This document shows positions 401 to 44,135 of a stretch of DNA of 64,000 nt, piece by piece. Within the stretch, counting starts at the first letter, position 1. Each line of letters starts with the position of its first letter. The translations under genes were made by a program, and so were the position numbers. The notes beneath the pieces were generated by a model, which saw only the letters and a list, made by a program, of their open reading frames with translations, had not been told where the DNA came from and made no database searches. The stretch lies in NCBI GenBank assembly GCA_963760795.1, contig CAVXEP010000007.1:1-64000 (forward strand), given 5' to 3'. Source of the DNA: an uncultured delta proteobacterium (GTDB taxonomy: Bacteria > Desulfobacterota > Binatia > UBA9968).

Positions 401-1517
401 CTATTCCTTGAGCCCCAGAACGTTGTAAGCAACAACCGCGCGCTGGAAACCCTTCAATGACAACTCGCCGATCGGCTTCGACATCGGCGAGATCGGCGAT
501 ACTGGCGAGCAAGCGTTGCGGAAGCAAGATTTGCCCCGGCTTGGCCTCACCGCATAGGCGCGCAGCCAGATTGCAAACCGTGCCGATGGAGCCGTAGTCC
601 CAGCGCCCTTCGAAGCCGATGGCGCCGATGGTGGCGTAACCCTGGGCGATGCCGACGCCGAAGCCGAGGTCGTAACCGAGCTTGCGCCATTTGCCGGACA
701 ATTCCTCACTGCGCTCGCGCATCGCCAGCGCCATGCGCACCGCGCGCTCCTGCGGGTTAGGCACCGGCACCGGATCGTTGAAGATCACCATCATGCCATC
801 GCCGATGAAGCACTCGAGCGTCCCCTCGTGCTCCATGATCAATTGGCCCATGGCCGCGTGATACTCGCGCAGGACGCCCATCACTTCCTCGGGCTCGGCG
901 GTTTCAGCGAACGCGGTGAAGCCGCGCAGATCGAGAAACACCACGGTCACATCGCGCCGGTGCGTCTTGAGCGGATCGTCGGCGCCGCCGGCGACGATCA
1001 ATTCGGCGAGCTGCGGAGAGAAGAATCGTTTCAGCCGTTCCAAACGTTCCAGTTGTTCCACTTGTGTCTGAACACGCAATTCCAGCGTCTTGTTCCACTC
1101 GGCCAATTGCGCCGCTTGCATTTGCACCGTGTCATGCAGTTCTTTGATGCGCAGCAGCGACTTCACCCGCGCCAGCAGCTCCGATTGATTGATCGGCTTG
1201 GTAAGAAAATCATCCGCGCCGGCGTCGATGCCCTTGACCCGCTCCTCGCTGGGATCGAGCGCCGTGACCATGACCACCGGCAGCATCGCCGTCGCCGGAT
1301 TATTGCGAATCGTCAGGCACACCTCGTAGCCGCTCATCTCCGGCATGACGACGTCTAAAAGAACTAAATCCGGCGGCTCTGCATCGATCTTCAGCAACGC
1401 CTCCCGTCCCGACGCAGCCGTAATCACCGCATAGCCCTTCACGCCCAGCAGATCGGCCAGAAGTTTCACATTGCGCGGCGTGTCGTCGACGACGAGAATT
1501 TTGGCAGGTGTATTCAT
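401..1517 (-). CDS. Response regulator receiver fused to a class III adenylate/guanylate cyclase (frameshift near 480)
   Basis: REC domain (ILVVDD, LLDVVMP, KP) followed by cyclase motifs VVFLDLRGFT, FIGDGMM, GTVCNLAARL. The natural C-terminus (PIGELSLKGFQRAVVAYNVLGLKE*) lies in the alternative frame ending at 401. Confidence 0.9.
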
Positions 1518-1669
1518 TGTAGAAAATTAGTAAGGAGTAAGGTGAGTCAGGAGTGAAGGTTGGTCCAAGCCCGGCGACTTTTCACGATTTTACGATCTTT
1601 CCAAGCTTACTTGGCGTCTTTGCGCCTTTGCGGGAGAATCTCCACTCCGATCGCCTAACCCCTTACCAC

Positions 1670-2055
1670 TCACGCCTTACGATTCTCCCCTAGAACCCGT
1701 TCCACTTCAGCGAAAAAATCTTTCAACGTGATCGGCTTGGTCTGATAGCCGTCGAAGCCTTCGGCCAACATCGCCGTCCGGTTATTCGTCATCGCCGATG
1801 CGGTGATCGCGATGATCGGGATGCTCTCGCGTCTGCGCATCGGCCTTCAACTGCTTCATCGCCGTGATGCCGTCCATGCCCGGCAGCTGGATGTCCATGA
1901 GAATCAGCGCCGGCGCCTCGCTGCGCGCCAAGATCGAGCCCCACCTCCGCGGTCTCCGACTCGATGGTCCGATACCCCTTCACCTGCAGCACATCGCGGC
2001 ACAGCTTCCGGTTCTTCTCGTTATCCTCGATGATTAGAATGAATTCGCCAGCCAC
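1670..2055 (-). CDS. Single-domain response regulator (DivK/CheY-like), frameshifted
   Basis: MAGEFILIIEDNEKNRKLCRDVL...; other frames give ILMDIQLPGMDG and IPIIAITASAMTNNRTAMLAEGFDGYQTKPITLKDFFAEVERVLGENRKA*. Confidence 0.85.
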
Positions 2056-2108
2056 GAGATTCTCCTCGTCTAGTGTGACGTAACGTTGCGCTCAATACTT
2101 CGAGATTA

Positions 2109-2559
2109 TTCACCACGAAGGTCACGAAGGACACGAAGGTTCAGAGAACAAATCTTCTAATGCCCTTTCTCAAGACATCAACGTTAAAGTTGATCAAAAG
2201 CCCAACTCCGACTTCAGTAAGTTTCATGTAGGTCAAAACTTGCGCTTCATGAATCTTGAGCAATTGATCGACGCTCTTCAGTTCAACAATCATCCGGTCA
2301 TCAACTAACAGGTCGATTCGATATCCACAGTCGAGCCTGATCTCTTTGTATTTAACAGGTAGTTCAACCTGAAGCTTAAACGGTATATTTGCCTGGTTCA
2401 GCTCGTAAGCCAAGCACTGCTCGTAAGTCGATTCAAGCAAACCAGGCCCGAGCTGGCGATGCACTTCAATCGCACAACCAATCACCTTGTTCGATAATTC
2501 ATCAAACTTCACTATCGTATTACTCTTACCTTCGTGCCCTTCGTGTCCTTCGTGGTGAA
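2109..2559. mobile_element. Putative GxxExxY-nuclease element bounded by 32 bp inverted repeats
   Basis: Left arm 2109-2140 TTCACCACGAAGGTCACGAAGGACACGAAGGT. Right arm 2528-2559 reverse complement TTCACCACGAAGGACACGAAGGGCACGAAGGT (30/32 identical). It encloses only the GxxExxY gene, has visibly lower GC than its flanks, and sits between the kinase and its response regulator. Confidence 0.65.
2141..2512 (-). CDS. GxxExxY family protein (PD-(D/E)XK-like nuclease fold)
   Basis: IGCAIEVHRQLGPGLLESTYEQCL (GxxExxY motif), RIDLLVDDRMIVELKS (D...ExK), HEAQVLTYMKL, GLLINFN. A GTG start at 2512 gives 123 aa; the frame stays open to 2587. Confidence 0.92.
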   Translation of the reverse strand: MKFDELSNKVIGCAIEVHRQLGPGLLESTYEQCLAYELNQANIPFKLQVELPVKYKEIRLDCGYRIDLLVDDRMIVELKSVDQLLKIHEAQVLTYMKLTEVGVGLLINFNVDVLRKGIRRFVL

Positions 2560-2589
2560 CACCTCCAACAGCAAACTGAGCTGCCACAC

Positions 2590-5500
2590 TTATTGAATTG
2601 GCAGCGTAAATGTAAAAGTGCTGCCTTTGCCCACTTCGCTTTCGACCCAGATTTTGCCGCCGTGCATTTCGACGAAACGTTTCGTCAGCGTCAAACCCAG
2701 CCCCGTCCCTTCGCGCTTGTGCGCGTAGTTGCCGCTGGCTTGGCGGAACTCTTCGAAGATCGCTTCTTGGTCTTCCTTGGCGATGCCGATGCCGGTGTCG
2801 ACGACCGACAGGATCACCGCGCTGTCGCCCAACCTCGCCTCGACCTTCACCTGCCCGCCCTCGGGCGTGAACTTCACCGCGTTGGTCAGCAGGTTGACGA
2901 GGATCTGTTTGATCTTGCGCTCGTCGCCGGTGAAGTCGCCCAAGCCGCTCGTCGATCGCGCTGGTCGAGTTTGATGCCGTGCCGGCTGGCGCGCTCGCGC
3001 ACCAGTAACATGGCGTTGTCGATGGCGTCGGGCAGATGAAACGTCGTCACCTCCAACTCCATGCGCCCGGCTTCGACCTTGGACAGATCGAGGATGTCGT
3101 TGATCAGCGACAGCAGATGGCGCCCGGAGGAAAGAATGTCGTCGACATATTCATTTTGCTTGTCGTTCAACTCGCCGAAGTATTTTTCCAGCAGCACTTC
3201 CGAGAAGCCGATGATCGCGTTGAGCGGCGTGCGCAGCTCATGCGACACGTTGGCGAGAAACTCCGACTTGTGCCGGTTGGCCGCTTCGATCTCGCGGTTC
3301 TTGTCGCCGATCTCGCGGAACAGCCGCGCGTTGTGGATCGCCAGAGCCGACTGCGTCGCGAAAGTTTGCAGCAGATTAATCACTTCCGGTTCGAACTCGC
3401 CGGCTTGCCGCCGCCAGACCGTCAGTCCTCCCATGATCTGCTGCTCGCGCAAGAGCGGCACCGTCAGCAGCGAGCGGTAACCGAGACGGGTGAGCAGCGG
3501 TCTGATCCGCGAAGCCGTACGCTCCTGCTGATCCAACGTATCCGCGAATCTGCACCGGCGCGCGAGTCATCGCCGCCTGACCCGCGGCGCCTTCACCCAG
3601 CCGTATGCGCGCCGCTCTGAGCCCTTCGACCGCTTCGGCTTCCATATGGTGGCTGGCCCGCAAATTAAACTCTTGCGCCGCCTCGTCATATTCGTAGATG
3701 ACGCCGCAATCGGTTCCCGACAGATCGACGGCGCGGGCGACGATGGTTTCCAGCACGGTTTCAAGATCGAGGCTGGAGCTCACCGCCTGGCCGACTTCGC
3801 TCAGCGCTTTCATTTCCTCGACCGACTCCACCAGCTCGCGCGTGCGTTCTTGCAATTCTTGGAACAGTCGGACGTTCTCGATGGCGATGACGGCTTGGTC
3901 GGCGAAGGTCTTGAGGAGCGCGATTTGCTTGTCAGTGAACGGTCGAACCTCCGTTCGGCGAATCAAGATAGCTCCAATGGGAACACCTTCGCGGAGCAGC
4001 GGCGTGGCAAGAACCGTCCGAGCACCGAGACCGTTCTGAGCGAAGCTTTGACGTCTGCGTAATTCGGTTTCCGACCTCCGCCGCAAGATCATGGATGTGA
4101 ATGGTTTGCCGATCAAGGATGGCTCGGCCAGCATGGCAGACCGCGAGTTAATGGACGGCTGTCGATACCGGTCTGGCATGCGGTCCATATTTCGCCACTG
4201 TCTTGAAGAAGTCGCCATCGACACGGATAATCGCAGCATCAGTCGCGTCACACAGCCGCGCGGCATTCTCTGCCACCACATCCAGCACCGGCTGGATATC
4301 CGTCGGCGAGCTGGCGATCACGCGCAGAATCTCGCTCGTCGCGGTCTGTTGCTCCAAAGCTTCGGTGAGCTGGCGGTTGCGAGTATCGAGCTCGTTGAAC
4401 AGCCGGACGTTTTCGATGGCGATGACGGCTTGGCTGGCGAATGTCTCAAGAAGTTTGATCTGTTTATCGGTAAACGGGCGCACTTCGGTGCGGCGGATTA
4501 GAATTAGTCCGATGAGGTACTCCCTCGCGCAGCAATGGCGCGCAAAGCAGCGTCCGAGACCCCGAAACGCTTTTGGGAGCGCCTTGCTTTCAGGAAACTC
4601 AGTTTCGACCTCCACGGCGAGATCATGAACATGAATCGTTTGCCGGTCGATGATCGCTCGCGAGGGCGCATGGCCACGGGTAATGAGCCACCTCTCCTCC
4701 AGACCAGGCGCCGGCATCGACCCATAAGGATGCCACGGATCGAAGGCAATCACCCTCGACGACGTTGGATCTGAGCATCCGTTGCGTCACAGAGCCGCGC
4801 CGCATTTTCGGCAACCACATCGAGCACCGGCTGAATATCCGTCGGCGAGCTGGCGATGACGCCAAGGATCTGGCTCGTCGCCGTCTGCTGTTCCAGCGAC
4901 TCGGTGAGCTCTTGGAACAACCGCACGTTCTCGATGGCGATGACGGCTTGGTCGGCGAAGGTTTTGAGAAGCGCGATCTGCTCTTCGGTGAACGGGCGCA
5001 CCTCGGTGCGCCGGATCGCGATGGCGCCAATGGGAACGCCCTCGCGGAGAAGTGGAACGGCCAGCAACGTCCGGATATCGCCAGGCGCTCATGAGCACGC
5101 CTATTGTCCGCAGAGTATTCGTCGCGACCTCTAGCGCATGTCGTGGATGTGGACAGTCGCCGATCGAGAACGGCACGGCCATCGCAGCCAGACTCGCTGG
5201 CTGCATCGGCCTGGGCTTTCGCCGACTACCGTAGTACTGCGGACCGACATGCCGTAACTGCGCAGACCATGCGCACCATGTCACCATCGACGCGAAAGAT
5301 CTGCGCATCGCTTGCGTCACAAAGCCGCGCGGCATTCTCGGCGACAACATCCAGCACCGGCTGAATATCCGTCGGCGAGCTGGCGATCACGCGCAGAATC
5401 TCGCTCGTCGCCGTCTGCTGCTCCAGAGCTTCGGTAAGTTGGCGGTTGCGATCTCCGAGTTCCTTGAACAGCCGCACGTTTTCGATGGCGATGACGGCTT

Positions 5501-8500
5501 GATCGGCGAAGGTTTTGAGCAACGCGATCTGCTTGTCCGAGAAAGGGCGAACTTCGGTGCGGCGAATAAAGATGGCCCCGATTGCAACCCCCTCGCGGAG
5601 CAAAGGTGCAACTAACATAGTACGAAGACCGACGGCTTGTGTAAACTTCCAGCCTTCGGGAAATTCGGCCTGAGCCTCCGGGCTCAACATGTCATCGACG
5701 TGTACGACCGCTCGATCGATCATAGCTCTGCCTGGAGGCAGACCCCGGATGAGAGGTCTAGGTTTATCGCGGTCGGGGATAGGCATAGATCCGTGTGCGG
5801 CCACGAGCCGATAACCGGCGCCGTCAATGCGGTAAATGTTGGCGTCGGCTGCTTCACATAGCCGTGCCGCACTTTCGGCAACCACATCCAACACCGGCTG
5901 AACGTCGGTCGGCGAACTGGCGATGACGCTCAGAATTTCACTCGTCGCGGTTTGCTGCTCCAGCGCTTCGGTGATTTCGCGATTGCGCTCTTGCAGTTCC
6001 TGGAACAGCCGGACGTTCTCGATGGCGATGACGGCTTGGTCGGCGAAGGTCTCGAAGTAGCGCGACCTGCTTCTGGGAGAACGGACCGACATCGGAATGC
6101 CAAACTGTGATTGCGCCGATCGGATCGCTCCCTCGGAGCATCGGCACGGCCAACACGCTACGGAAGCGGGATACTGTCGGAGATCGTCGGGCAAAGTCAT
6201 GCTCGGGTCTTGTGCGACATCGGGAACGTGAAGCAACCTGCGCGGTCGCAGGATCGCTCGCGCCGTCGAATAGATGTCGGCCCGGCGGGGTTGGAAAGAG
6301 CCGCCGGGATAGCTCCAGCGCCGCCGGTGGATAGTTGCAATCAGCGACCATGCGGATCAACTCACCGTCGAAGCGGTAGACCGATCCGAAAAGCGCGCCG
6401 CAAAGCTCTCGACCGAATTTTGGGCGATCGATCGAACACGGGCTGCACATTCGGTCGGCGAGCGGCTGCTGATGACCGCAAGCACCTCGCCCGTCGCCGT
6501 CTGCTGCTCCAGCGCTTCGCGTAAGTCCGCGGTTGCGCGTCACCGAGTTCGTTGAACAGCCGGACGTTCTCGATGGCGATGACGGCTTGGTCGGCGAAGG
6601 TTTCGAGCAAGCTTGATCTGCTTGTCGGTAAACGGACGAACTTCGGTGCGGCGAATCATGATTGCTCCGATCGGATACTCCTTCGCGCAGCAACGGCGCG
6701 CCAAGCACAGTTCGAGTACCGACGCTTGCTGGTGCAGCTCTGGCTTTCAGGAAACTCAGTTTCGACCTCCGCGGCAATGTCATGGACGTGAATCGTCTGC
6801 CGGTCGAGCATCGCTCGGCCGAGGGAGTCTGACCCGGTGTGATCGGCGAACTCCTCAACGGCCTGGCGCCGGCATCGACCCATAGGATGCCACGAGCTCG
6901 CAGCGAAGTCACCCTCGACGGCGATGGATCTGCGCATCAGTTGCGTCGCATAGCCGCGCGGCGTTCTCGGCAACGACATCCAGCACCGGCTGAATATCGG
7001 TCGGCGAGCTGGCGATGACGCCCAAGAATTTCACTCGTCGCGGTCTGCTGCTCCAGCGACTCGTTGAGCTCTTGGAACAGCCGCACGTTCTCGATGGCGA
7101 TCACGGCTTGGTCGGCGAAGGTTTCAAGCAGCTTGATCTGCGCCGGGGTGAAGGGGCGCACCTCGGTGCGACGTGCGTTCAGCGCTCCAATGAGTTCCCC
7201 CTGCTGACGAAGGGGAACGGCCAAGAAGGTGCGAAAGTCGCCGACGGAACCCAACGTTGGGAAATCGTTCTGCGCGCGGACGTCGGGAATGTGGAGCGTG
7301 CCGTGCTCGCGCATCCAGCGAAACTGTGGCTCATCAATACTGATCTCGACGCGGCCAATGGGTATGGGACCAAAATGAGCCCGCGAGAACCATAACGTTC
7401 CCCTCGCGGAGTCGCAGCACCACGTCATCGATCCCACAAACCCGGGCGGCGCTCTCGACGATGGCGTCGAGCACCGGCTGCACGTCCGTCGGCGAGCGGC
7501 TGATGATGCCGAGCACCTCGGCCGTCGCCGTCTGATGCTCCAGCGCCTCGCGCAATTCCGCGTTGCGCTCGCCGAGTTCCTTGAACAGGCGCACGTTCTC
7601 GATGGCGATGACCGCCTGAGTCGGCGAAGGTTTCAAGCAGTTCGATCTGCTTGTCGGTAAAGGGACGGACCTCCATGCGGCGAATATGAATCACGCCAAT
7701 GGCAACGCCTTCACGCAGCAGCGGCGTGCCAAGCACGGTCCGAACGCCAGTCGTTCTGACGCGCTTGCACGTCCGGAAACTCCGCTTCGAGCTCCGGCAT
7801 CAAGTCCGGAATATGGATGATTTGCCGGTCGACAACCGCTCGACCAGCACGGTGACTGACGGTCGATGGGCCGAGCGTCCGCGCGCTCGGGCACAGGCCC
7901 AAAATGTGCACGCGCTCGAAGAACGTCACCATCGACGAGCCGAATGATGCGCATCGTTGGCGCCGCATACTCGCGCGGCATTCTCAGCGACCACATCCAG
8001 CACCGGCTGAATATCCGTCGGCGAGCTGGCGATGACGCCCAAGAATCTCACTCGTCGCCGTTTGCTGCTCCAACGACTCCGTGAGTTCTTGGAACAGCCG
8101 CACGTTCTCGATGGCGATCACGGCCTGGTCGGCGAAGGTTTCAAGCAGCTTGATCTGCGCCGGGGTGAACGGGCGCACCTCGATGCGACGCGCGATCAGG
8201 ACTCCAATGAGTTCCCCCTGCTGACGAAGGGGAACGGCCAAATAGGTACGAAAACTGCCGACGGAACCTACCCTCGGGAAATCGTTCTGCGCGCGGACGT
8301 CGGGAATGTGGAGCGTGCCATGCTCGCGCATCCAGCGAAACTGTGGCTCATCGACACTGATCTCGACGCGGCCAGATGGGTATGGGACCAAAATGAGCCC
8401 GCGGAACCATAGCGTTCCCCTCGCGGAGTCGCAGCACCACGTCATCGATCCCACAAACCCGCGCCGCGCTCTCGACGATGGCGTCGAGCACCGGCTGCAC

Positions 8501-11302
8501 GTCCGTCGGCGAGCGGCTGATGATGCCGAGCACCTCGGCCGTCGCCGTCTGATGCTCCAGCGCCTCGCGCAATTCCGCGTTGCGCTCACCGAGTTCCTTG
8601 AACAGCCGCACGTTCTCGATGGCGATGACGGCTTGGTCGGCGAAGGTTTTGAGCAAGCGAGATTTGTTTATCGGTAAATGGATGGACTTCGGTGCGACGA
8701 ATGAAGATCACACCGATCGCAACACCTTCGCGCAGTAGCGGTGTAGCAAGAGCAGTTCGAATCCCTGTTCGCCTCGCTCTGACGGCGTCTCCGGAAATTC
8801 GTTTTCTACCTCGGCTGAAGATCATGAATATGAATCGTCTGTCGATCGAGCACCGCTCGGCCGACCAACGCGATCCGCGATCGAGCGGTCGACTCGCTCG
8901 CCGGCTCGGAATCGGTGCCGATAGATGCGGCCGACCAGCGAAGCACATCACCTTCGACACGCGAGATCATGCGCATCGATCGCATCGCATAGTCGCGCGG
9001 CGTTTTCTGCAATCGTGTCCAGCACCGGCTGAATATCCGTCGGCGAGCTGGCGATGACGCCCAGGATTTCACTCGTCGCCGTCTGCTGCTCCAACGACTC
9101 CTTGAGTTCTTGAAACAGCCGCACATTCTCGATGGCGATCACGGCTTGGTCGGCGAAGGTTTCGAGCAGCTTGATCTGCGCCGGGGTGAAGGGGCGCACC
9201 TCGGTGCGACGCGCGTTCAGTGACTCCAATGAGTTCCCCCTGCTGACGAAGGGGAACGGCCAAGAAGGTGCGCCAGTCGCCGGCGGAACCCGACATCTGG
9301 GAAATCGTTCTGCGCGCGGACGTCGGGAACATGGAGCGCGCCATGCTCGCGCATCCAGCGAAACTGTGGCTCATCGATACTGATCTCGACGCGGCGCGAT
9401 GGGTATGGGACCAAAATGAGCCCGCGGAACTCATAACGTCCCCCTCGCGGAGTCGCAGCACCACGTCATCGATCCCACAAACCCGCGCGGCGCTCTCGAC
9501 GATGGCGTCGAGCACCGGCTGCACGTCCGTCGGCGAGCGGCTGATGATGCCGAGCACCTCGGCGGTCGCCGTCTGATGCTCCAGCGCCTCGCGCAATTCC
9601 GCGTTGCGCTCGCCGAGTTCTTTGAACAAGCGGACGTTCTCAATGGCGATCACGGCCTGGTCGGCGAAGGTCTTGAACAAGCGCGATCTGCTTATCGGAG
9701 AATGGACGAACCTCAATGCGACGAATTACGATCGCCCCGATGGACGCACCTTCGCGCAGCAGCGGCGTGGCGAGCATGGTTCGAGCACCGATTCGTTGCT
9801 GGCAAATTGCGATCGGGAACTCCCTTCGGCTCCGCTGCAAGTCATGAACGTGGATAGTTTGCCGTCGATAATCGCTCGGCCGGCACGGAATGCGGCTCAA
9901 TCGCACGGTCCTGTGCCACGCGACCATCGAGCGGTCCGTAATGTGCGACTCGCCTAGGAACATCTCCATTCGACGATCAATCAGCGCGTCGTTCGCGTCG
10001 CATAATTGCGCGGCACTTTCGGCGATCGCGTCCAGCACCGGCTGCAGATCCGTCGGCGAACTGGCGATGACGCGAAGAATCTCGCTCGTCGCCGTCTGCT
10101 GCTCCAACGCCTCGCGCAGTTCCGAGTTGGAGGACTCCAGCTCAGCGGTTTTGCTTCTAACCTGCTCAAACAGATTGATGTTCTCGACGGCGACGCCGAT
10201 CTGATCGCACATCGAGTTAATCAGCCGGACTTCTTCGGCAATCAGCTTTCTCGGCTCTTTGCCCAGGCAGGTGATTGTCCCCAAAAACCGTTCTTTGGCT
10301 TTGATTGGAAAAAGCGCGAAGAAACAGTGATCGCGCTGTTGGGTGGCTTTGGTTTGACTCAGTTCCTGATAACGAGGATCGGTCTTGACGTTCTCAAAAA
10401 TGATCGGTTCGCCGGTCTCCGCCACTCTGCCCGTGAGTCCCTGGCCACGGCGAAAGCCTCTAGGGGAAGGTGCTTCTTCATGAGGAGCGAAGGAAGCCAC
10501 TCTATTTAAGTATTCTCTCTGCGGGTCGAAGAGAAAAATGCTCATCGAATCAAAAGCAAAAATCTCCGTTATCTTCCTAATCACTTCGTCCAAGACCGGC
10601 TTGATCTCCAAGGACCGGCTGGCGGCGGTCGTCACATCGTGCAGCGCCGCGAGATCGCGGTTGCCGGCCTCGCGTTCCTGGAACAGCCGGGCATTCTCGA
10701 TGGCGATCACCGCCTGGTCGGCGAAGGTTTCGAGCAGTTTGATCTGCGCGTCCGTGAAGGGTCGGACTTCCGTGCGGCGGATATGAATGCACCCGATCGG
10801 TTGGCCGTTCAGAAGCAGCGGGGTTGCGAGTGCCGTTCGGACGCCGACGGTAAGACCGTGAGCCATTGCACCGGGATACTCGTCTGCAGCAGCGCGAAGG
10901 TCATGGACATGCACCGTTTCCCGGTCGACAACCGCCCGGCCGTGCGGCGTGCTGCGGTCGAGAGGTCCGCTCACACCAATCGGAGACACGGTTGGTACCG
11001 AGCCGAAATGCGACACGGCGTAGTAACGATCGCCTTCCAAGCGGCGAACCAAAGCATCGTCGGCCTCACACAACCGCGCTGCACTCTCGGCAATGGTATC
11101 CATCACCGATTGGATGTCCGCCGGTAGCTCTTGCGATCATGCGCAGGATCTCGCTGGTGGCGTTTTCCCGCGCTAAAGCGTCGGCGAGTTCGCGCTGAAG
11201 GCCTGAGTTGAGCCGGTCTTCTTAGGCTGGGACTTCTTCGCCGCGACAGAGCGCGGCTTGGCCTTGGCCTTCTTCGCACCTTTTTTCTTGAATCGTGGCC
11301 AT
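2590..11302 (-). CDS. Giant multi-GAF (~15 GAF) cytoplasmic sensor histidine kinase, broken by many apparent frameshifts
   Basis: Repeated GAF end motif [12 protein letters not shown] and linker [24 protein letters not shown] at ~510-550 bp period. His[21 protein letters not shown]; HATPase [22 protein letters not shown]. Lys-rich N-terminus from ATG 11302. Confidence 0.88.
6980..9680. repeat. Three near-identical GAF cassettes at ~1,020 bp period inside the kinase gene
   Basis: The block encoding [12 protein letters not shown]...[27 protein letters not shown]...[12 protein letters not shown] recurs at about 6980-7650, 7996-8660 and 9016-9680. Confidence 0.85.
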
Positions 11303-13899: not shown

Positions 13900-14213
13900 A
13901 AGGGCCAGAACATCACCACGAAGGCACGAAAAATCCCAGCGCGGCGCAGCCTCAACCGAAATTCGGATAATCTGCCGCAAAGACGCAAGGTCGCAGAATC
14001 CGGACAAGGACGGTTAGAACCTTCTGCCAAGATAATTTAGCTCTTCCTTCCGAAATTGGCGTCATTGCGCCTTTGCGAGAGATACTTCCGAATCCGAGTG
14101 CATACAGCTTCCACGATCACTTACACCCGCCGCCTCACGCCTTATCCATGGCCCCGTTCCTTGACGGCGACGCTCGGTCCAAAGTAGATTGCAGCGCAAG
14201 CAAGGGAGAGGAT

Positions 14214-21030: not shown

Positions 21031-21108
21031 ATTGGAGTGGTGGAGCGATGGAGTACTGGGGTCTCAGAACCCCACCACTCCAATACTCCATCGCTCCACT
21101 ACTGCAAT
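21031..21108. repeat. Family C palindrome (GGAGTA/TACTCC units)
   Basis: ATTGGAGTGGTGGAGCGATGGAGTACTGG...CCAATACTCCATCGCTCCACTACTGCAAT; second copy at 34639-34727. Confidence 0.8.
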
Positions 21109-24960: not shown

Positions 24961-25061
24961 CGTTCAAGAGTTCAAAGGTTCAAGGTTCAAGGCCGGATTG
25001 CAAGAAAACCTATCGGCCGGCGCAACTCCGATTGAACCCTTGAACCTTGAACTCTTGAACG
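24961..25061. repeat. Family B palindrome (GTTCAAG/CTTGAAC units)
   Basis: CGTTCAAGAGTTCAAAGGTTCAAGGTTCAA ... TTGAACCCTTGAACCTTGAACTCTTGAACG. Other copies at 33369-33453 and 41434-41519; half copies at 50248-50276 and 54481-54511. Confidence 0.85.
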
Positions 25062-30863: not shown

Positions 30864-32045
30864 ATGACTCCGGCAACTACCGACACCCTCTGGACCCGCG
30901 CTTTCGTGCTGCTCTGCATCGTCCAGTTCTTAGGCTACGCGCAACACTTCGTGCTGCAACCGACGCTGCCGATTTACGTCACTCATCTCGGCGCCACACC
31001 GTTTGTCGTGGGTTTGGTGATGGCATCGTTTGCCGCCACCAGCATGATCTTGCGGCCGCTGGTGGGCTACTGGTCCGATCGCTGGAGCGAAGCCGGCGTA
31101 ATGATCTCCGGCCTGTTAATCCAAGGCGCCAGCGTGTTGCTTTGCTACCTGCCGTTTGTCGCCACGACCATGATCGCCAATAGCTGCCGCGGCGTCGGCT
31201 GGGCCAGCGTCAACTCCGGCGGCTACGCGCTGCTCGCCCAAAGCGCTCCCGCCGCCCGCCGCGGTGAAGCGTCGGGTTATTACAGCGGCGCCCAGGGCAG
31301 CGCGACGATTCTTTTGCCAGCCTTGGCGCTCTGGTTGATCGACGCGCCCTTCGGCGGCTTTCACGTCGTCTTCGCGGTTTCCATGACCATCGCCGTCACC
31401 GGCGCCGCCCTCGGCCTGCTGCTGCGCGAACGCGCCGTAAACACGGCGCGTCAACAGCGCAACGCCCTCGCCGGCCCCTGGTGGCGCGAGATCATCAGAC
31501 TTCCTGAAAAAGATATTTTACTCGCCTCCGGATTGCTCTTCGCCCTGCATGTTTCTCTGCCCGCCGTCGCCGGCTTTCTGGTGCTCTACGCGCGCCAGCT
31601 GGGCATCGAGCATTTCGGTTGGTACTACGTCGCCAGCGGCGCGACGAGTTTGATCGCCCGCCCGCTGCTCGGGCAACTCTCGGATAGGATTGGCCGCGGC
31701 GCCGCCATCGGAGCGGGTTTCATTCTCGAAGCCGCGGCATTCTGCGTCGTCGTAAACGCCACCACGCTGGGCGGCATGATCGTCTCAGGAGTGCTCTACA
31801 TGACCGGCTCGTCCATGGGCACCGCGGCGACGTTGGCGCTCGCCCTGCAGCACGCCAACCCGGAACGGCGCGGCCAAGTGATCGCCACTTATTCGATGGC
31901 CTATCCGCTCAGCGCCGGCGTCGGCTCCCTGCTCGCCGGCAGCGCCATTCAAATCGCCGGCTACCGCTGGATGTTCATCTTCATCGCCCTGCTCAACATC
32001 CCCGGCCTATGGATCACCTGGAAAAACCGCGCGAGTTTGCAATGA
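30864..32045 (+). CDS. MFS transporter, tandem paralog 1 of 5
   Basis: LWTRAFVLLC, RPLVGYWSDRW, RRGEASGYY, RPLLGQLSDRIGR. Confidence 0.9.
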   Translation: MTPATTDTLWTRAFVLLCIVQFLGYAQHFVLQPTLPIYVTHLGATPFVVGLVMASFAATSMILRPLVGYWSDRWSEAGVMISGLLIQGASVLLCYLPFVATTMIANSCRGVGWASVNSGGYALLAQSAPAARRGEASGYYSGAQGSATILLPALALWLIDAPFGGFHVVFAVSMTIAVTGAALGLLLRERAVNTARQQRNALAGPWWREIIRLPEKDILLASGLLFALHVSLPAVAGFLVLYARQLGIEHFGWYYVASGATSLIARPLLGQLSDRIGRGAAIGAGFILEAAAFCVVVNATTLGGMIVSGVLYMTGSSMGTAATLALALQHANPERRGQVIATYSMAYPLSAGVGSLLAGSAIQIAGYRWMFIFIALLNIPGLWITWKNRASLQ

Positions 32046-32063
32046 CAATGATGAAGAATCGTT

Positions 32064-32164
32064 TTCACCACGAAGGGCACGAAGTTCACGAAGGTAAAAG
32101 AAATCCTATTCAACACCTATACACACTTTTCCGAACTTCGTGTGCTTCATGCCTTCGTGGTGAA
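32064..32164. repeat. Family A gene-less inverted-repeat element (CACGAAG arms)
   Basis: TTCACCACGAAGGGCACGAAGTTCACGAAGGT ... CTTCGTGTGCTTCATGCCTTCGTGGTGAA. Confidence 0.85.
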
Positions 32165-32176
32165 CAATCCTAATCC

Positions 32177-33358
32177 ATGGCCACGCCACAATCTCATACC
32201 CTCTGGACGCGCACTTTTCTCTTGCTTTGCACCGCGCAATTTTTCGGCTCGTCGCAGCATGCGCTGCTGCAGCCGACCTTTCCGCTCTACATCACGTCGC
32301 TCGGCGGCACGCCGTTTCAAGTCGGCCTGGTGATCGCCTGCTTCGCGGTCACCAGCGTGGTTTTTCGTCCGATCATCGGCGGCTGGGCCGACCAGTGGTC
32401 CGAGCCCGGAGTGTCGTTTTGCGGTTTGACCTTGCTGTCGCTCGCGGTGTCGATCTGTTTCATTCCGTTGACCGAAGCGACCATGTTGGCCAACGCACTG
32501 CGCGGCATCGGCTGGGCCGCCATGAGCGCCGCGGGATATTCCATGTTAGCGTTAAGCGCGCCCACCGATCGCCGCGGCGAAGCTTCTGGATATTATAGCG
32601 GCGTGCAAGCCAGCGGCACGATACTCTTGCCCGCTGTCGCCCTGTGGCTCATCGCCGCGCCCTTCGGCGGCTTTCGCGTCGTCTTCACCGTCGCGGTCGC
32701 CCTGGCCGCCATCGGCGCAGTTGCTGCCGCCGCGCTCAAGCGCCACATGCCACCGCGCACCCAAGAGCGCCACAGCGCACCGTCCGGTCCCTGGTGGCAG
32801 GAAATTCTCAGTGTGCTAGACCGCGAGATCATTCTCGCCTCGGTCCTCTCGTTTATGTCCCATGTCACCTTCCCGGCGGTGGCGAGCTTTTTGGTGCTCT
32901 ACGCCCGCGAACTGGCGATCGACAACATCGGCTGGTTCTACGTCGTCAGCGGCGCCACCAGCATCCTCGCCCGGCCGCTGCTCGGCAAAGTCTCCGACCG
33001 CATCGGCCGGGGGCGCGCGCTACTCGCCTGCTTCATCCTGGAAACTCTCGCCCTGGTACTGCTGGCTTTCGCCGCCAATCTGTTCGCCTTAATCATTTCC
33101 GGCGCGCTTTATATGCTTGGCCTCGCTATGAGTAGCTCGACGACCCTCGCCATCGCCATGGAACAAGCCAGACCTGAACGGCGCGGCCGCGCCATGGCGA
33201 CCTTTTCCATCGCTCTACCGCTCAGCAATGGCATCGGCGCTTTGATCTGCGGCAGCCTGGTACAATGGTTCGGATTCTTCGCCATGTATCTCGTCCTCGC
33301 CGCCCTCGGCGCCAGCGGACTGTTCATCACCATCGCCAACCGGGTGAGGCTGAAATAG
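32177..33358 (+). CDS. MFS transporter, tandem paralog 2 of 5
   Basis: Same motifs as paralog 1. Confidence 0.9.
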   Translation: MATPQSHTLWTRTFLLLCTAQFFGSSQHALLQPTFPLYITSLGGTPFQVGLVIACFAVTSVVFRPIIGGWADQWSEPGVSFCGLTLLSLAVSICFIPLTEATMLANALRGIGWAAMSAAGYSMLALSAPTDRRGEASGYYSGVQASGTILLPAVALWLIAAPFGGFRVVFTVAVALAAIGAVAAAALKRHMPPRTQERHSAPSGPWWQEILSVLDREIILASVLSFMSHVTFPAVASFLVLYARELAIDNIGWFYVVSGATSILARPLLGKVSDRIGRGRALLACFILETLALVLLAFAANLFALIISGALYMLGLAMSSSTTLAIAMEQARPERRGRAMATFSIALPLSNGIGALICGSLVQWFGFFAMYLVLAALGASGLFITIANRVRLK

Positions 33359-33368
33359 CTCAGGGGGC

Positions 33369-33453
33369 CGTTCAAGGTTCAAGAGTTCAAGGACAGAGAT
33401 GCCACTCCGAAGTGCTTCTGCCCTTGAACTTTTGAACCCTTGAACCTTGAACG
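33369..33453. repeat. Family B palindrome
   Basis: CGTTCAAGGTTCAAGAGTTCAAGG...CCTTGAACTTTTGAACCCTTGAACCTTGAACG. Confidence 0.85.
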
Positions 33454-33468
33454 AATTCTTATTTTCTT

Positions 33469-34636
33469 ATGACCGACACCATCTGGACCAAGACGTTTAT
33501 TTTGCTCTGCGCCGCGCAGTTGCTGGGATATGCGCAGCATTTCATGCTCGCGCCGGTGCTGCCGCTTTTCCTCACGCAATTGGGTGCTCCTCCGGTCGTC
33601 GTCGGCATTGTGCTCGCCTGCTTCGCCGTCACCAGCGTCGTGGTCCGTCCGCTGGTCGGTCACTGGGCCGACCGTTGGAGCGAAGCCGGCGTGATGATCT
33701 CCGGTTTGCTATTTCAAGCCGTGAGCATTTTTCTCTGTTTCATTCCGTTCGTCCCGGCCACGGCATTAGCCAACGGCCTGCGCGGCATCGGCTGGGCGGG
33801 TTTGAACACCGGCGGTTACTCGCTCCTGGCGCTGATCTCGCCGGAAAAACAACGCGGCGCCGCCTCCGGTCTCTACAGCGGCGTGCAGAGCTCGGCGCAA
33901 ATCTTTTTTCCGCCCTTCGCCCTCTGGCTGCTCTACGGCTCCTTCGGCGGCTACCGCCTGGTGTTCGTCGTCACGGCGATTTTTTCCATCGCCGGCGCGC
34001 TCACCGGCTGGACGATGGCATCCTCGGTGCCACGTCCGGCGAAAGTGCACGGCACCCATGAAAAAACCGATTGGTGGCGCGAAATATTTCATTTCGTCGA
34101 GCCGGAGATTTTCCTGCCGTCGCTGCTCCTGCTCTGGCTCAACCTATCGCTGCCGGCGATCACCAACTTCATAATTCTCTACGCCAAAGAACTTGGCATC
34201 GGCAACTTCGCCGCCTATTTCGTTGTCATAGGCGCCACCAGCATGCTCGGCCGGCCGCTGCTCGGTCGCCTGTCCGATCGCATCGGCCGCGCTCGTTCCA
34301 TCGCTGCCGGCTTTGCCTTGCAGGTGATCGCCCTGGTTCTGATCACTGTGATGTCGCAATTTATTGGGCGTGATTATCTGCGGCGCGATATACATGCTCG
34401 GCAACGCCATCGGCAGCTCGACGACGCTGGCGTTGGCCGTCGAACGCGCCGATCCCCAACGGCGCGGTAAACAGATGGCGACCTTCTCCGTCGCCTACCC
34501 GTTAAGTTATGGCGTCGGCTCGCTCATCACCGGCAGCGCCATCGACATCGCCGGCTACATCGGCATGTTTCTGCTGCTGGCCGCGATCCAAGCGGGTGGA
34601 TTGATTTTTATCGTCGGGCGGCGCGCGAAACTGTAA
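33469..34636 (+). CDS. MFS transporter, tandem paralog 3 of 5 (frameshift ~34365)
   Basis: Joined from ORFs 33469..34470 and 34364..34636. Confidence 0.88.
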
Positions 34637-34638
34637 AG

Positions 34639-34727
34639 GATTGGAGTGATGGAGTACTGGAGTGCTGGAGTGATGGGCGTTCCGAAAACCCAATACTCCA
34701 TTACTCCAACACTCCATCACTCCAATC
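34639..34727. repeat. Family C palindrome
   Basis: GATTGGAGTGATGGAGTACTGGAGTGCTGGAG...CAATACTCCATTACTCCAACACTCCATCACTCCAATC. Confidence 0.85.
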
Positions 34728-34777
34728 TTCGCCGTCCACCGCATGAGTTTTTCCCGCCGCCATGCTAGACCACAACG

Positions 34778-35962
34778 ATGTCCGTTGCATCGACGAACCG
34801 ATCCCTCTGGACGCGAGCGTTTGTGCTGCTCTGCTTGGCGGAATTTCTTTGCTATGCGCAGCACTACCTTTTGCAGCCGGCGCTGCCGCTCTATATCACC
34901 TACCTGGGTGGCTCGCCGTTCATCGTCGGTCTAGTGATCGCCGCCTTCGGCGTCACCAGCGTCATCTCGCGGCCGATCATCGGTTACTGGGTCGATCGCT
35001 GGAGCGCTCCCGGGATGATGTTTCTCGGCATGATCGGCCAGGGGCTCAGCATCTTGTTTTGCTTGCTGCCGCTCAACGCCGCGGTGATTTTTTCCAACGC
35101 GCTGCGCGGCATTGCTTGGTCGAGTATGGCGGCATCGGGTTACACGCTGCTGGCGACCTCCGCGCCGCCGCAACGTCGCGGTGAAGCATCCGGCTATTTC
35201 GGCGGCGTCCAGTCCAGCGCGACGATCATTTTCCCCGCCATTGCGCTTTGGATCATCGACTCACCGATGGGCGGTTTTCGCGCGGTATTTCTGTTGGCGA
35301 TGGCGTTCGTTTTCAGCGGCGCAATCGCGGCGTGGGCCCTGGCGCGCGTCGCACCGCAGCACAGCCAGGAAAGTAATACTGACAATCGAGATTCGTGGTG
35401 GCGCGAGATTGTCAATGTCGTCGACCGCCATATTCTCACCGCGGCGTTGCTGATATTTACTTTGAACCTGTCGCTGCCCTGTTTCTCCAGCTTCATTGTG
35501 CTTTACGCTCGCGATCTCGGCGTCGGCAACTTTGGTTGGTATTACGTTGCCGTCGGCGTGACCAGTGCGCTCGGGCGCCCGCTGCTCGGCCGCTTTTCCG
35601 ACAAACTCGGCGCCGGCCGGTCATTGCTGATCGCCTTCAGTCTAGAGACTGCGGCCTTGCTGATCATGCCGTTCGCAAGCAGTCTGCCTGGCTTAATCTT
35701 GAGCGGCGCACTTTTTTACACCGGCGCCGCCATCGGCGGCGCTCGGATCATGGCACTGGCAATGGAATCCGCGCCGGCACAGCGTCGCGGCCGAGCGATG
35801 GCGAGCTATTCCACCGCCTTGCCCCTAAGCAACGGCACCGGCGCGTTGATCAACGGCATAGTCGTCGATCTGGCCGGTTTTCGCTGGATGTTCACCATCG
35901 CCGGCATCCTCTGCTCGATGGGTTTCATCGTGATCTGGAAACAATGGGCAAAATTGAAATGA
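34778..35962 (+). CDS. MFS transporter, tandem paralog 4 of 5
   Basis: Same motifs as paralog 1. Confidence 0.9.
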   Translation: MSVASTNRSLWTRAFVLLCLAEFLCYAQHYLLQPALPLYITYLGGSPFIVGLVIAAFGVTSVISRPIIGYWVDRWSAPGMMFLGMIGQGLSILFCLLPLNAAVIFSNALRGIAWSSMAASGYTLLATSAPPQRRGEASGYFGGVQSSATIIFPAIALWIIDSPMGGFRAVFLLAMAFVFSGAIAAWALARVAPQHSQESNTDNRDSWWREIVNVVDRHILTAALLIFTLNLSLPCFSSFIVLYARDLGVGNFGWYYVAVGVTSALGRPLLGRFSDKLGAGRSLLIAFSLETAALLIMPFASSLPGLILSGALFYTGAAIGGARIMALAMESAPAQRRGRAMASYSTALPLSNGTGALINGIVVDLAGFRWMFTIAGILCSMGFIVIWKQWAKLK

Positions 35963-36008
35963 CCCGCGGCACGATAATCGATCAGGTCAGCCAAAGCGAA
36001 AGAGTCCT

Positions 36009-36091
36009 TTCACCACGAAGGACACGAAGAGCACGAAGTTCGGAATTAAATTACTCGAACCCTTCGTGTCCTTCGTGCCTTCGTGGTGTAA
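36009..36091. repeat. Family A gene-less inverted-repeat element
   Basis: TTCACCACGAAGGACACGAAGAGCACGAAGTT ... CCTTCGTGTCCTTCGTGCCTTCGTGGTGTAA. Confidence 0.85.
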
Positions 36092-36122
36092 ATTATCCAT
36101 CCCATAAGAGCTTGACGCTGCC

Positions 36123-37307
36123 GTGACCATCGCCAACCACGCATCTGTTTGGACCTCCACGTTTGCCCTGCTCTGCATAGTCCAGTCGTTGGGCTATGCG
36201 CAGCAGGCCATGCTCAACCCGACGATCCCGCTCTACATCACCCAATTGGGCGGTTCGCCCTTCGTGGTCGGGTTAGCCATTTCCTCGTTTGCCGCGACCA
36301 GCGTGATCGCCCGGCCATTTATCGGATATTGGGCCGACCGCTGGAGCGAGTGCGGCGTATTGGCCTTCGGCCTGATCATGTTGGCGGCGAGCATGCTGCT
36401 GTGCTTTTTCCCCTTCGTCAGCATGGTCCTGCTCGCCAACGCCCTGCGCGGCATCGGCTGGGCTGGAGTCAACGCCGGCGGCTACGCTCTCTTGGCGCGC
36501 ATCGCCCCGGCATCGCGCCGCGGCGAGGCTGCGGGATATTACAGCGGCGCGCAATCGACGCCGACGGTGCTTTTTCCCGCCGTCGCGCTGTGGCTATTGT
36601 ACGCGCCTTTTGGCAGTTACAATTTGGTCTTTACCATCATGATCGCTTTGGGCCTAGCCGGAGCCGGTGTTTGCTATTTCATGTCCCGTCAGGTTCCCAC
36701 CGTGGAGCGTCAGGCCGACTCACAACCAGCGTCGCTCCCTTGGTGGCGGCAAATCTTCAGCGCGGCGGAACATGGCGTGTTGCTGCCCGCGGCGCTGATG
36801 TTCTGCAGTCAGCTGAGTTTCCCGGCGATCACCAGTTTCATCGTGCTTTACGCCCGCGAGATCGGCATCGGCGCCATCGGTTCCTATTTCGTCGTCAGCG
36901 GCATCGCCAGCGTGCTCGCCCGCCCATTGCTCGGCCGCGTCTCCGATCGCATCGGCATCGGCTATTCTCTGGTCGCGACTTTCACGTTGCAGTCCCTCGG
37001 CCTCATGTTATTAGTCGCTGCGTCAAACCTCGCGACGATCTTGTGCGCGGGCGTGCTCTACATGCTCGGCATGGCGATCGGCGGTTCGGCAACGCTGATC
37101 ATTGCGATGAAGCGAGCCACGCCGGAGCGGCGCGGCCGGTTCATGGCATCATTTTCAATCGCCTACCCGCTCGGCTACGGCGTCGGCGCGTTTATCACGG
37201 GTAGTGCCGTCGACATGGTCGGCTACACTTGGACTTACGTTTTGCTCGCCGTGCTCGGCAGTTCAGGACTGGCGCTGACTATCCTCAATTGGCGAAAATT
37301 GGAATAA
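36123..37307 (+). CDS. MFS transporter, tandem paralog 5 of 5
   Basis: Same motifs as paralog 1. Confidence 0.9.
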   Translation: MTIANHASVWTSTFALLCIVQSLGYAQQAMLNPTIPLYITQLGGSPFVVGLAISSFAATSVIARPFIGYWADRWSECGVLAFGLIMLAASMLLCFFPFVSMVLLANALRGIGWAGVNAGGYALLARIAPASRRGEAAGYYSGAQSTPTVLFPAVALWLLYAPFGSYNLVFTIMIALGLAGAGVCYFMSRQVPTVERQADSQPASLPWWRQIFSAAEHGVLLPAALMFCSQLSFPAITSFIVLYAREIGIGAIGSYFVVSGIASVLARPLLGRVSDRIGIGYSLVATFTLQSLGLMLLVAASNLATILCAGVLYMLGMAIGGSATLIIAMKRATPERRGRFMASFSIAYPLGYGVGAFITGSAVDMVGYTWTYVLLAVLGSSGLALTILNWRKLE

Positions 37308-42643: not shown

Positions 42644-42729
42644 TTCACCACGAAGGACACGAAGATCACGAAGTCCGGAATTTAATTTTTGCCCAAACCT
42701 TCGTGTCCTTCATGCTCTTCGTGGTGCAA
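42644..42729. repeat. Family A gene-less inverted-repeat element
   Basis: TTCACCACGAAGGACACGAAGATCACGAAGT ... ACCTTCGTGTCCTTCATGCTCTTCGTGGTGCAA. Confidence 0.85.
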
Positions 42730-44060: not shown

Positions 44061-44135
44061 TTCACCACGAAAGATCACGAAGAGCACGAAGTTTAAGAAT
44101 TCTTCATCCGAAACCTTCGTGTCCTTCGTGGTGAA
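44061..44135. repeat. Family A gene-less inverted-repeat element
   Basis: TTCACCACGAAAGATCACGAAGAGCACGAAGTT ... ACCTTCGTGTCCTTCGTGGTGAA. Confidence 0.85.

Follow-up and report, generated by a model that had tools for sequence, protein, structure and literature searches.

The window analysed here is a stretch of 64,000 nt from an uncultured delta proteobacterium (contig CAVXEP010000007.1, positions 1-64,000), and our subject is an element at 2109-2559 of it, in which a small gene of the GxxExxY (PDDEXK_3) nuclease family is enclosed by two inverted arms made of tandem heptamers. This element is one copy of a compact, discrete arms-plus-gene cassette, relatives of which measure ~420-455 bp when complete. 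Judged from sequence comparison, the arms-plus-gene unit is horizontally distributed and the type of arm is linked to the lineage of the gene, even for paralogues that share a contig. We give about even odds to the proposition that the cassette spreads horizontally and that its nuclease works on the heptamer arms of the cassette itself, with host recombination or repair copying or keeping it.

A repeat finder located the arms at 2109-2140 and 2528-2559, each 32 nt long, 30/32 (94%) complementary and 387 nt apart; each comprises, as the original prediction had described, three CACGAAG/CTTCGTG heptamers; their period is 9 nt and the outward ends read TTCAC/GTGAA. That prediction had also placed here a GxxExxY gene of ~123 aa with its stop codon abutting the left arm, and this was borne out by matches of the product to PF13366 PDDEXK_3 (E 1.5e-44, 151.5 bits against a cut-off of 22) and TIGR04256 GxxExxY (E 1.6e-45, 154.2 bits against a cut-off of 35), with no further match in Pfam or NCBIfam, and by a TGA stop at 2143-2141 that touches the arm ending at 2140. 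The probable start is the GTG at 2512-2510, yielding the 123 aa that is also the commonest length among database relatives, and the syntenic relatives start with GTG in four cases and TTG in one. The mechanically called open reading frame (ORF) begins at 2587 and runs through the arm as HHEGHEGHEG, the profile match beginning at residue 30. The GC content of the element is 44.3% (42.6% in the gene) against 56.2% and 60.4% in its flanks and 58.2% over the whole window, in keeping with the earlier claim that it is AT-richer than the host genes.

The window contains 20 occurrences of the sequence CACGAAGG where 2.1 are expected, and 0/100 shuffles reach 20; the repeat is thus a family, and the question becomes whether its flanking of a gene is special. 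Whether inverted repeats surround GxxExxY genes generally, a check that the original prediction had called for, was assessed in the best 80 of 210 relative-encoding loci (numbered L001 onwards; 54-90% protein identity, one genome per species). For each gene copy, the 130 nt on its upstream side were compared with the 130 nt on its downstream side, and the best inverted repeat without gaps was scored against 1618 shifted positions in the same loci, a pass being a score above the 99th percentile of these controls, and three copies at contig ends were dropped. Flanking inverted repeats passed in 54/81 testable gene copies, drawn from many phyla, while that score was reached by ~1% of the shifted controls and by 7/524 of the remaining ORFs in these loci that are 200 aa or longer. 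The repeat is therefore not so abundant that it would flank genes by chance, a possibility raised with the original prediction, and chance is excluded as the source of the gene-flanking arms.

The cassette behaves as a discrete unit. In at least 12 loci, blastn homology between the window element and copies in other contexts breaks off no more than ~5 nt from the outer ends of the arms. On the reversed window these ends lie at 10042 and 10492, and matches were obtained over 10042-10494 (L009), 10042-10492 (L015 and L027) and 10044-10492 (L057). The terminal consensus of 30 end-aligned elements reads tTCA-CCACGAAG...CTTCGTGG-TGAa, and these elements span 418-514 bp between the terminal motifs, 26/30 of them 418-455 bp. 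In each of two genomes, two copies at different loci share no more than 462 nt (L035/L048, 89% identity) or 439 nt (L037/L038, 95% identity), with flanks otherwise unrelated. A further three contigs carry two copies each. The GC content of the gene is below that of its flanks in 81/83 copies, by a mean of 9.4 points, and tracks host GC (r = 0.83).

Cassettes were found in unrelated genomic contexts in at least 10 phylum-level groups. By record titles, the CACGAAG-armed clade includes Binatia-like and 'delta proteobacterium' metagenome-assembled genomes (MAGs), Desulfobacterota, Planctomycetota, Verrucomicrobiota, Lentisphaerales, Kiritimatiellia, a Mariprofundus strain, Alphaproteobacteria, Ectothiorhodospiraceae and a Bacteroidales MAG. 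Taken together, the sharp outer ends, the same-genome pairs, the low GC and the spread over phyla indicate that arms and gene travel as one piece. No tblastn match to the nuclease was found in the phage collection. Contigs shorter than 3 kb carried 97/120 of the closest database relatives, which may be a sign of multicopy repeats that interrupt assembly; we do not lean on this proportion, as short contigs are common in metagenomes anyway.

The arms are arrays of 2-4 heptamers. When the commonest 7-mer within 250 nt of the gene was taken for each of 84 copies, with strands pooled and no prior pattern, it fitted C-R-N-N-R-A-G in 73/84, and 11/84 showed something else. The nine named types, CACGAAG (47 copies), CACAGAG (13), CGCAGAG (3), CACGGAG (3), CAGTGAG (2), CGCAAAG (2), CGCCAAG (1), CGCGGAG (1) and CATGAAG (1), all match this pattern. 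Three contigs carry two divergent paralogues that lie a few kb apart and have different arms: CACGAAG and CGCAGAG in L020, CACGAAG and CGCCAAG in L034, and CACGAAG and a CACGAAC/CACGAAT type in L017. Less clear-cut are the two same-genome pairs, in which the proteins are near-identical: L035/L048 has CACGAAG arms in both copies, and L037/L038 has only partly degraded CACGAAG-type arms beside other repeats. In these two loci (L037 9904-10586, L038 10400-10620) a second repeat family is mixed in, consisting of a 56-nt inverted repeat and CTCACAAAAGATCG-type direct repeats, and in L037 it intervenes between gene and 5' arm. The arms also appear prone to local amplification; 5' arms are repeated in tandem upstream of one gene in L003 (four 5' arms, 9800-10000) and L005 (three 5' arms, 9700-10000), and several arms lie on either side of the gene in L031 (9770-10500).

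Eight plasmid records with more distant relatives (37-57% protein identity) were added to the sample. The Bacteroides and Bernardetia plasmid copies have CACAGAG arms, and that of Sphingomonas parapaucimobilis (NZ_CP155749.1, L083 1464-1917) is a cassette between fabD and fabG with CGCGAAG arms; its annotated ORF has no stop ahead of the 3' arm, reads through it and ends 2 nt short of the fabG start. The Gemmatirosa copy is located among CGCAGAG hairpins and the Treponema copy has a plain 11-bp inverted repeat; of the eight, two have direct repeats and one has no repeats. Thus the arm rule weakens below ~45% protein identity.

The original prediction had located the element between a histidine kinase and its response regulator, and both neighbours were verified, the kinase by Pfam and the regulator by tblastn with the L005 orthologue; everything that the prediction had stated as fact proved correct. 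In five loci of five other species (L001, L002, L003, L005 and L006) the same order of kinase, cassette, receiver gene and receiver-cyclase gene is found on one strand. Identity to the window in these five loci, in that order, is 90, 85, 84, 85 and 84% for the nuclease, 92, 74, 77, 76 and 78% for the kinase C-terminus, and 80, 82, 79, 76 and 75% for the cyclase protein. Among the six syntenic nuclease genes the proportions of nonsynonymous (pN) and synonymous (pS) differences are 0.05-0.12 and 0.58-0.93; with synonymous sites so near saturation the ratio of the corresponding rates, dN/dS, is only bounded, at most ~0.09 wherever dS was computable. It had been envisaged that relatives might carry the gene here without arms; all five syntenic relatives keep them, and over the six copies 33/36 heptamers are exact and the remaining three are one base off each. 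The two-base spacers between the heptamers vary, and their complementarity is not preserved. This pattern of conservation indicates that the window copy has long been resident and that its protein is under strong purifying selection. The mobility originally proposed found no support in this copy, which is orthologous in five other species.

Nearly all cassettes occupy short spacers that separate genes of one orientation. With neighbours called by a longest-ORF heuristic, both share the strand of the gene in 49/66 loci (upstream 62/71, downstream 65/77), and in the annotated plasmid records both are co-directional in 6/6, for instance fabD and fabG on either side of the gene. Other contexts include hisD/hisC, pheA/aminotransferase, ftsY/ribD, epimerase/UDP-glucose dehydrogenase, radA/FAD protein and livK/livH. 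The gap from arm to start codon has a median of 18 nt and is at most 1 nt in 10/54 copies, and that from stop codon to arm has a median of 6.5 nt and is at most 3 nt in 21/54. In the window copy the leader of 15 nt is too short to leave room for a promoter of its own inside the arms, and no promoter-like (sigma-70-like) or terminator-like site was found at 1500-3200 of the window. Transcription of the gene would come from read-through of the host operon. For the RNA of the element, closure by the terminal stem is predicted (-176.6 kcal/mol, z -7.75), and in this model the long-range stem would bury the initiation region and keep translation low.

The window holds a single GxxExxY gene copy and four gene-less hairpins with the same ends and heptamers as the cassette and loops of only ~20-45 nt (Table 1). 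These nearly fill their spacers, three of which are co-directional and one convergent. In L042, two neighbouring hairpins (2019-2171 and 2285-2437) enclose an internally deleted gene, with residues 1-21 joined to the last ~10, and both lie in the arm array beside an intact copy; deletion derivatives thus do arise. The tandem-unit hairpins of this genome are not confined to the GxxExxY family: GGAGT-type hairpins at 21031-21108 and 34639-34727 and GGTTCAA-type hairpins at 24970-25060 and 33369-33453 are likewise intergenic and built of tandem 7-8-nt units, with no gene inside. Five tandem paralogues encoding major facilitator superfamily (MFS) transporters, four of them of 393-394 aa, occupy the plus strand at 30864-37307, and each of the four spacers among them is nearly filled by a hairpin, three different families being represented. 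Further tandem-unit hairpins, of AATCCGAAAT type and GAGATTG type, bracket ordinary genes of ~250-300 aa in L020 (10750-13540) and L062 (1950-2000, 7390-7450 and 13250-14100).

The gene is intact. The motif G24-L-L-E27-S-T-Y30 and the catalytic-type residues D67 and E77-L-K79 are present, and in 78 sequences E27, Y30, E77 and K79 are invariant and D67 is kept in at least 90%. An AlphaFold2 model (mean predicted local distance difference test score, pLDDT, 94.7) matched best among solved folds the Cas4 protein SSO0001 (4ic1, E 3e-3, TM 0.58), followed by lambda exonuclease, AddAB nuclease domains and Hjc; all these matches are weak and all are to PD-(D/E)XK folds. A sequence search of the PDB gave no match to the nuclease. 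A defence-protein label was not adopted, as the matches in PADLOC (Cas4) and PHROGs were weak (E 6.5e-4 and worse). The family is large, with 22,770 cluster representatives (50% identity) at E of at most 0.001 and 7,824 at E of at most 1e-10 among 1.84 billion searched, and a passage of the superfamily survey of 2012 gives its function as unknown (PMC3424549). A profile search of the window and all loci revealed no distant paralogues beyond the known copies. An in-frame stop interrupts the gene in 6/83 locus copies. Among the top-scoring proteins, P0121, P0122 and P0125 (266-295 aa) are two-domain GxxExxY fusions in which the second domain is without the D...ExK residues, and such a catalytically degenerate partner hints at a dimeric working unit.

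These observations suggest a mechanism in which the nuclease would recognise its own heptamer arrays once the arms fold back, as single-stranded DNA or as a cruciform, and would cut there. Host recombination or repair would then copy or retain the cassette between hairpins with shared arms. The outcome would be slow duplicative spread, horizontal transfer and the appearance of gene-less derivatives or partners, in a manner resembling homing and the system of REP (repetitive extragenic palindromic) sequences and their RAYTs (REP-associated tyrosine transposases). A more far-reaching version, to which we give rather less than even credence, is that GxxExxY proteins are the dedicated nucleases of a phylum-spanning group of operon-borne hairpin elements, read a C-R-N-N-R-A-G code, trigger copying through their cuts, seed gene-less hairpins, and so form a PD-(D/E)XK counterpart of RAYT/REP.

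Several observations weigh against a nuclease that acts on its own arms and thereby spreads them. To our knowledge, a PD-(D/E)XK fold on its own does not suffice to rejoin DNA, and any mobility would have to depend on repair by the host. Neither the window copy nor the 30 end-aligned elements show a target-site duplication, as the original prediction had noted for the window copy, and near-identical copies were absent from the sample, in which the most similar pairs from one genome reach 89% and 95% identity. The kinase-regulator junction is occupied in 6/6 syntenic genomes (the loci were gathered via the gene, so empty sites could not appear); likewise, the sister pair L007/L010 shares its site between livK-like and livH-like genes and the pair L009/L057 shares its site between two CoA-transferase genes. 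Such shared sites indicate that cassettes stay put for long under selection. In the flank test 27/81 copies fell below the strict threshold; in a closer view of 26 loci that had failed this test or lacked a detected tandem unit, most of the failing copies show a single arm or an adjacent complete hairpin, and the patterns include an arm beside the stop codon and irregularly spaced arms. Relatives at 37-42% identity (L084-L086 and L088) have simple inverted repeats, direct repeats or none. Remnants of the gene were found in the loops of only two of 24 gene-less hairpins, both in L042, and away from the gene the cognate heptamer is only ~2-fold enriched in the loci. A profile search found no GxxExxY partner for the GGAGT-type and GGTTCAA-type hairpins in the window or in any locus, so that the tandem-unit build alone does not imply binding by a GxxExxY protein. 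As to the covariation of repeat type with protein clade anticipated by the original prediction, the protein tree requires 12 changes of heptamer label, compared with a mean of 25 for shuffled labels (0/200 shuffles as low), a result that is confounded with host phylogeny, has exceptions (L052 and L041) and is therefore given little weight; the cleaner evidence comes from the within-contig paralogue pairs of L017, L020 and L034, in which the type of arm goes with the gene.

The main alternative is that the cassette works at the level of RNA, the ~30-bp stem in the read-through transcript being cut by a double-strand RNase such as RNase III, as in the intervening sequences (IVSs) of rRNA. The nuclease mRNA would be excised, the host genes insulated from polar effects and translation controlled by the stem, and the substrate of the protein would lie elsewhere, with the covariation of arm and gene arising from co-travel only. 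The predicted closure of the element RNA on its terminal stem speaks for this, as do the lack of room for a promoter, the 5' arm that abuts the start codon in 10/54 copies, and the co-orientation with both neighbours in 49/66 loci, which fits a need for read-through; the anatomy is also close to that of the Coxiella 23S IVS as given in part of PMC4990558. However, mismatches of G.U type are not in excess on the coding strand (26 G.T/T.G against 29 A.C/C.A), a stem needs complementarity alone and not identical tandem heptamers with invariant cores and drifting spacers, gene-less hairpins are found between convergent genes too, the window has no Rfam match, and the arrival of the unit at new sites is left unexplained. 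We consider an exclusively RNA-level explanation rather unlikely, though a role in RNA is compatible with a nuclease acting on the arms and both can hold.

Other explanations separate the hairpins from the gene, or the gene from mobility. The hairpins could be independent REP-like repeats, of the host or selfish, into the pre-existing loops of which the GxxExxY gene inserts, the arms being its target; in the window, gene-less hairpins with matching ends exceed the gene in number by 4-5 to 1, other tandem-unit hairpin families exist without a gene, and in Bacteroidota/Gemmatimonadota loci (L049, L051, L067, L068 and L087) the gene lies beside complete hairpins and not inside them. This seems improbable to us, since CACGAAG arms are found with proteins of this clade across many phylum-level groups, which is more easily explained if the arms travel with the gene, since gene and arms fit tightly (stop codon 0-3 nt from the arm in 21/54 copies), and since the gene-less loops are not conserved as a target would be. 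We also give little credence to the protein being a domesticated host factor, no longer moving, a sequence-specific nuclease or binder that the host would employ at heptamer hairpins throughout its genome, be it for mRNA processing or stability, for the control of replication or recombination, or the like, with its own arms serving autoregulation. The shared junction in six species with dN/dS of at most 0.09 would suit such a factor, as would heptamer cores that are conserved in gene-bearing copies and recognisable in gene-less ones, and hairpins that fill spacers inside gene clusters as REP sequences do; against it stand the foreign GC in 81/83 copies, the patchy occurrence across distant phyla at 55-70% protein identity, and several copies per contig or genome, in-frame stops in 6/83 and deletion derivatives, which are marks of a selfish family that is turning over. 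Finally, a mere coincidence, in which the repeat is common in the genome and two copies lie by luck around a small gene, has a parallel in the window in an ordinary 421-aa gene (42763-44028) bracketed by two separate hairpins with outer arms that pair; it can be practically dismissed, as 54/81 copies pass against ~1% of controls and the same layout is met again in other phyla and has been kept at orthologous sites.

The features of the element, its neighbours and the other repeats of its family are collected in Table 1. The 88-aa fragment of the receiver gene in the window had no Pfam match, its identity coming from the tblastn comparison with L005. Both the kinase and the regulator are frameshifted in the window and intact in L005 and other loci, which may reflect assembly indel errors or pseudogenes. 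The kinase contains tandem GAF modules of 530-540 nt. The receiver-cyclase gene (393-1517), which follows the receiver gene on the same strand, is flanked by a CCTTAC/GTAAGG-type repeat, of which the copies at 376-397 and 1660-1681 are 95% alike and 1530-1560 is an inverted partner; further short repeats of TTTCGTGCTT and AATCCGAAA types lie at 180-360. Rfam gave no match of any kind in the window.

Table 1. Coordinates of the cassette, its neighbouring genes and related repeats in the window.
Feature	Position	Strand	Remarks
5' arm (gene orientation)	2528..2559	-	minus strand = TTCACCACGAAGGACACGAAGGGCACGAAGGT; three CACGAAG, 9-nt period; kept in five syntenic species
Leader, 15 nt, from 5' arm to GTG start	2513..2527	-	
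GxxExxY/PDDEXK_3 gene	2141..2512	-	123 codons plus TGA stop at 2143-2141
3' arm (gene orientation)	2109..2140	-	minus strand = ACCTTCGTGTCCTTCGTGACCTTCGTGGTGAA; begins right after the stop codon
Upstream neighbour, multi-GAF histidine kinase (HisKA, HATPase_c)	2590..6912	-	ORFs and Pfam; several overlapping ORFs through frameshifts
Downstream neighbour, response-regulator receiver gene	1670..2055	-	frameshifted, ORFs 1789-2055 and 1670-1840; tblastn with intact L005 orthologue
Partial solo arm	13915..13935	+	CACCACGAAGGCACGAAA; single CTTCGTG ~150 nt upstream at 13760
Gene-less hairpin	32064..32170		ends TTCACCACGAAG...CTTCGTGGTGAA; fills spacer between two MFS transporter genes; DNA fold -25.9 kcal/mol, z -7.1
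Gene-less hairpin, same family	36010..36088		between two MFS transporter genes; DNA fold -29.4 kcal/mol, z -8.6
Gene-less hairpin, same family	42644..42727		between convergent genes; DNA fold -18 kcal/mol, z -4.2
Gene-less hairpin, same family	44062..44135		between two minus-strand genes; DNA fold -19 kcal/mol, z -6.1

In the literature searched, which included searches for the arm sequences, no paper tied GxxExxY/PDDEXK_3 genes to flanking repeats. Repeat-associated nuclease genes are known as a kind; the version with a GxxExxY gene and heptamer arms was not found described there. The designation of the element as a new class of minimal mobile element was overstated: the discrete unit, the sharp ends and the gene-less copies stand, but the logic of RAYT/REP and the anatomy of IVSs were already known. 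The heptamer arms nevertheless provide a fixed partner that turns an 'unknown nuclease' into a concrete biochemical question, for which the same-contig paralogues with different heptamers are built-in specificity controls. Should the protein act on the arms, the few nucleases that shape the intergenic DNA of bacteria in association with repeats would be joined by one with a second, unrelated fold, and tandem-heptamer hairpins would have a possible explanation. Annotation is affected as well, since gene callers often extend ORFs through the arm, as in several near-identical database entries of 143-150 aa instead of 123, and since cassettes lie inside conserved operons such as fabD-fabG and hisD-hisC.

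The arms recall the cyanobacterial short tandemly repeated repetitive (STRR) sequences, which are intergenic arrays of tandem heptamers able to form hairpins; we know of no gene associated with STRR sequences. Cas4/RecB-type nucleases provide the nearest solved folds and the nearest weak profile matches to the GxxExxY protein, which, unlike Cas4, is ~80 residues shorter and has no matched iron-sulfur module and no CRISPR context. The mechanism suggested above is akin to homing-type maintenance, in which a small nuclease cuts the vacant or cognate site and host recombination retains the element. I-Ssp6803I is a homing endonuclease of PD-(D/E)XK fold. For TnpB of IS605-family elements, a passage of PMC10690162 describes a nuclease cut that lets host recombination copy or retain the element. 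In contrast to these systems, the cassette involves no intron, intein or guide RNA, and its homology arms would be only ~30 bp. With insertion sequences and miniature inverted-repeat transposable elements it shares terminal inverted repeats round one gene, several subterminal binding-site-like repeats per end, foreign GC and short gene-less derivatives (the two deleted copies of L042), but it is without a DDE, HUH, serine or tyrosine recombinase match and without a target-site duplication, and its sites are stable across species.

A relationship between the cassette and those intervening sequences of rRNA that carry an ORF is conceivable. The Coxiella 23S IVS is described, in the part of PMC4990558 that deals with it, as 444 nt long with a 28-bp terminal stem, one small ORF and a GC content below that of the host, and as cut by RNase III. 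As far as such descriptions of the Coxiella and Leptospira examples extend, the likeness covers length (~440-450 nt), a stem of ~28-32 bp, a small ORF filling the loop, low GC, horizontal gain followed by vertical keeping, and dependence on host transcription. The IVSs, however, lie in rRNA helices and encode the four-helix-bundle protein S23p, whereas the cassette lies between protein-coding genes and encodes a nuclease, and no S23p-type (four-helix-bundle) gene was present among 36 low-GC small ORFs of the loci.

RAYTs are HUH/Y1 enzymes of the IS200/IS605 kind, in contrast to the PD-(D/E)XK fold found here. REP sequences are described in a passage of PMC3733652 as single short palindromes with a GTAG or CGTC tag, whereas the arms of the cassette are arrays of 2-4 heptamers, and RAYTs are given in a passage of PMC5581495 as typically single-copy. 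Of the GxxExxY loci compared here, the window copy has been kept vertically at its site in six species, and three contigs and two genomes carry two copies each. In both systems a nuclease-type gene lies between inverted cognate palindromic repeats of which many gene-less copies occupy intergenic spacers, the gene is held for long at a fixed site, and the repeat type follows the lineage of the gene.

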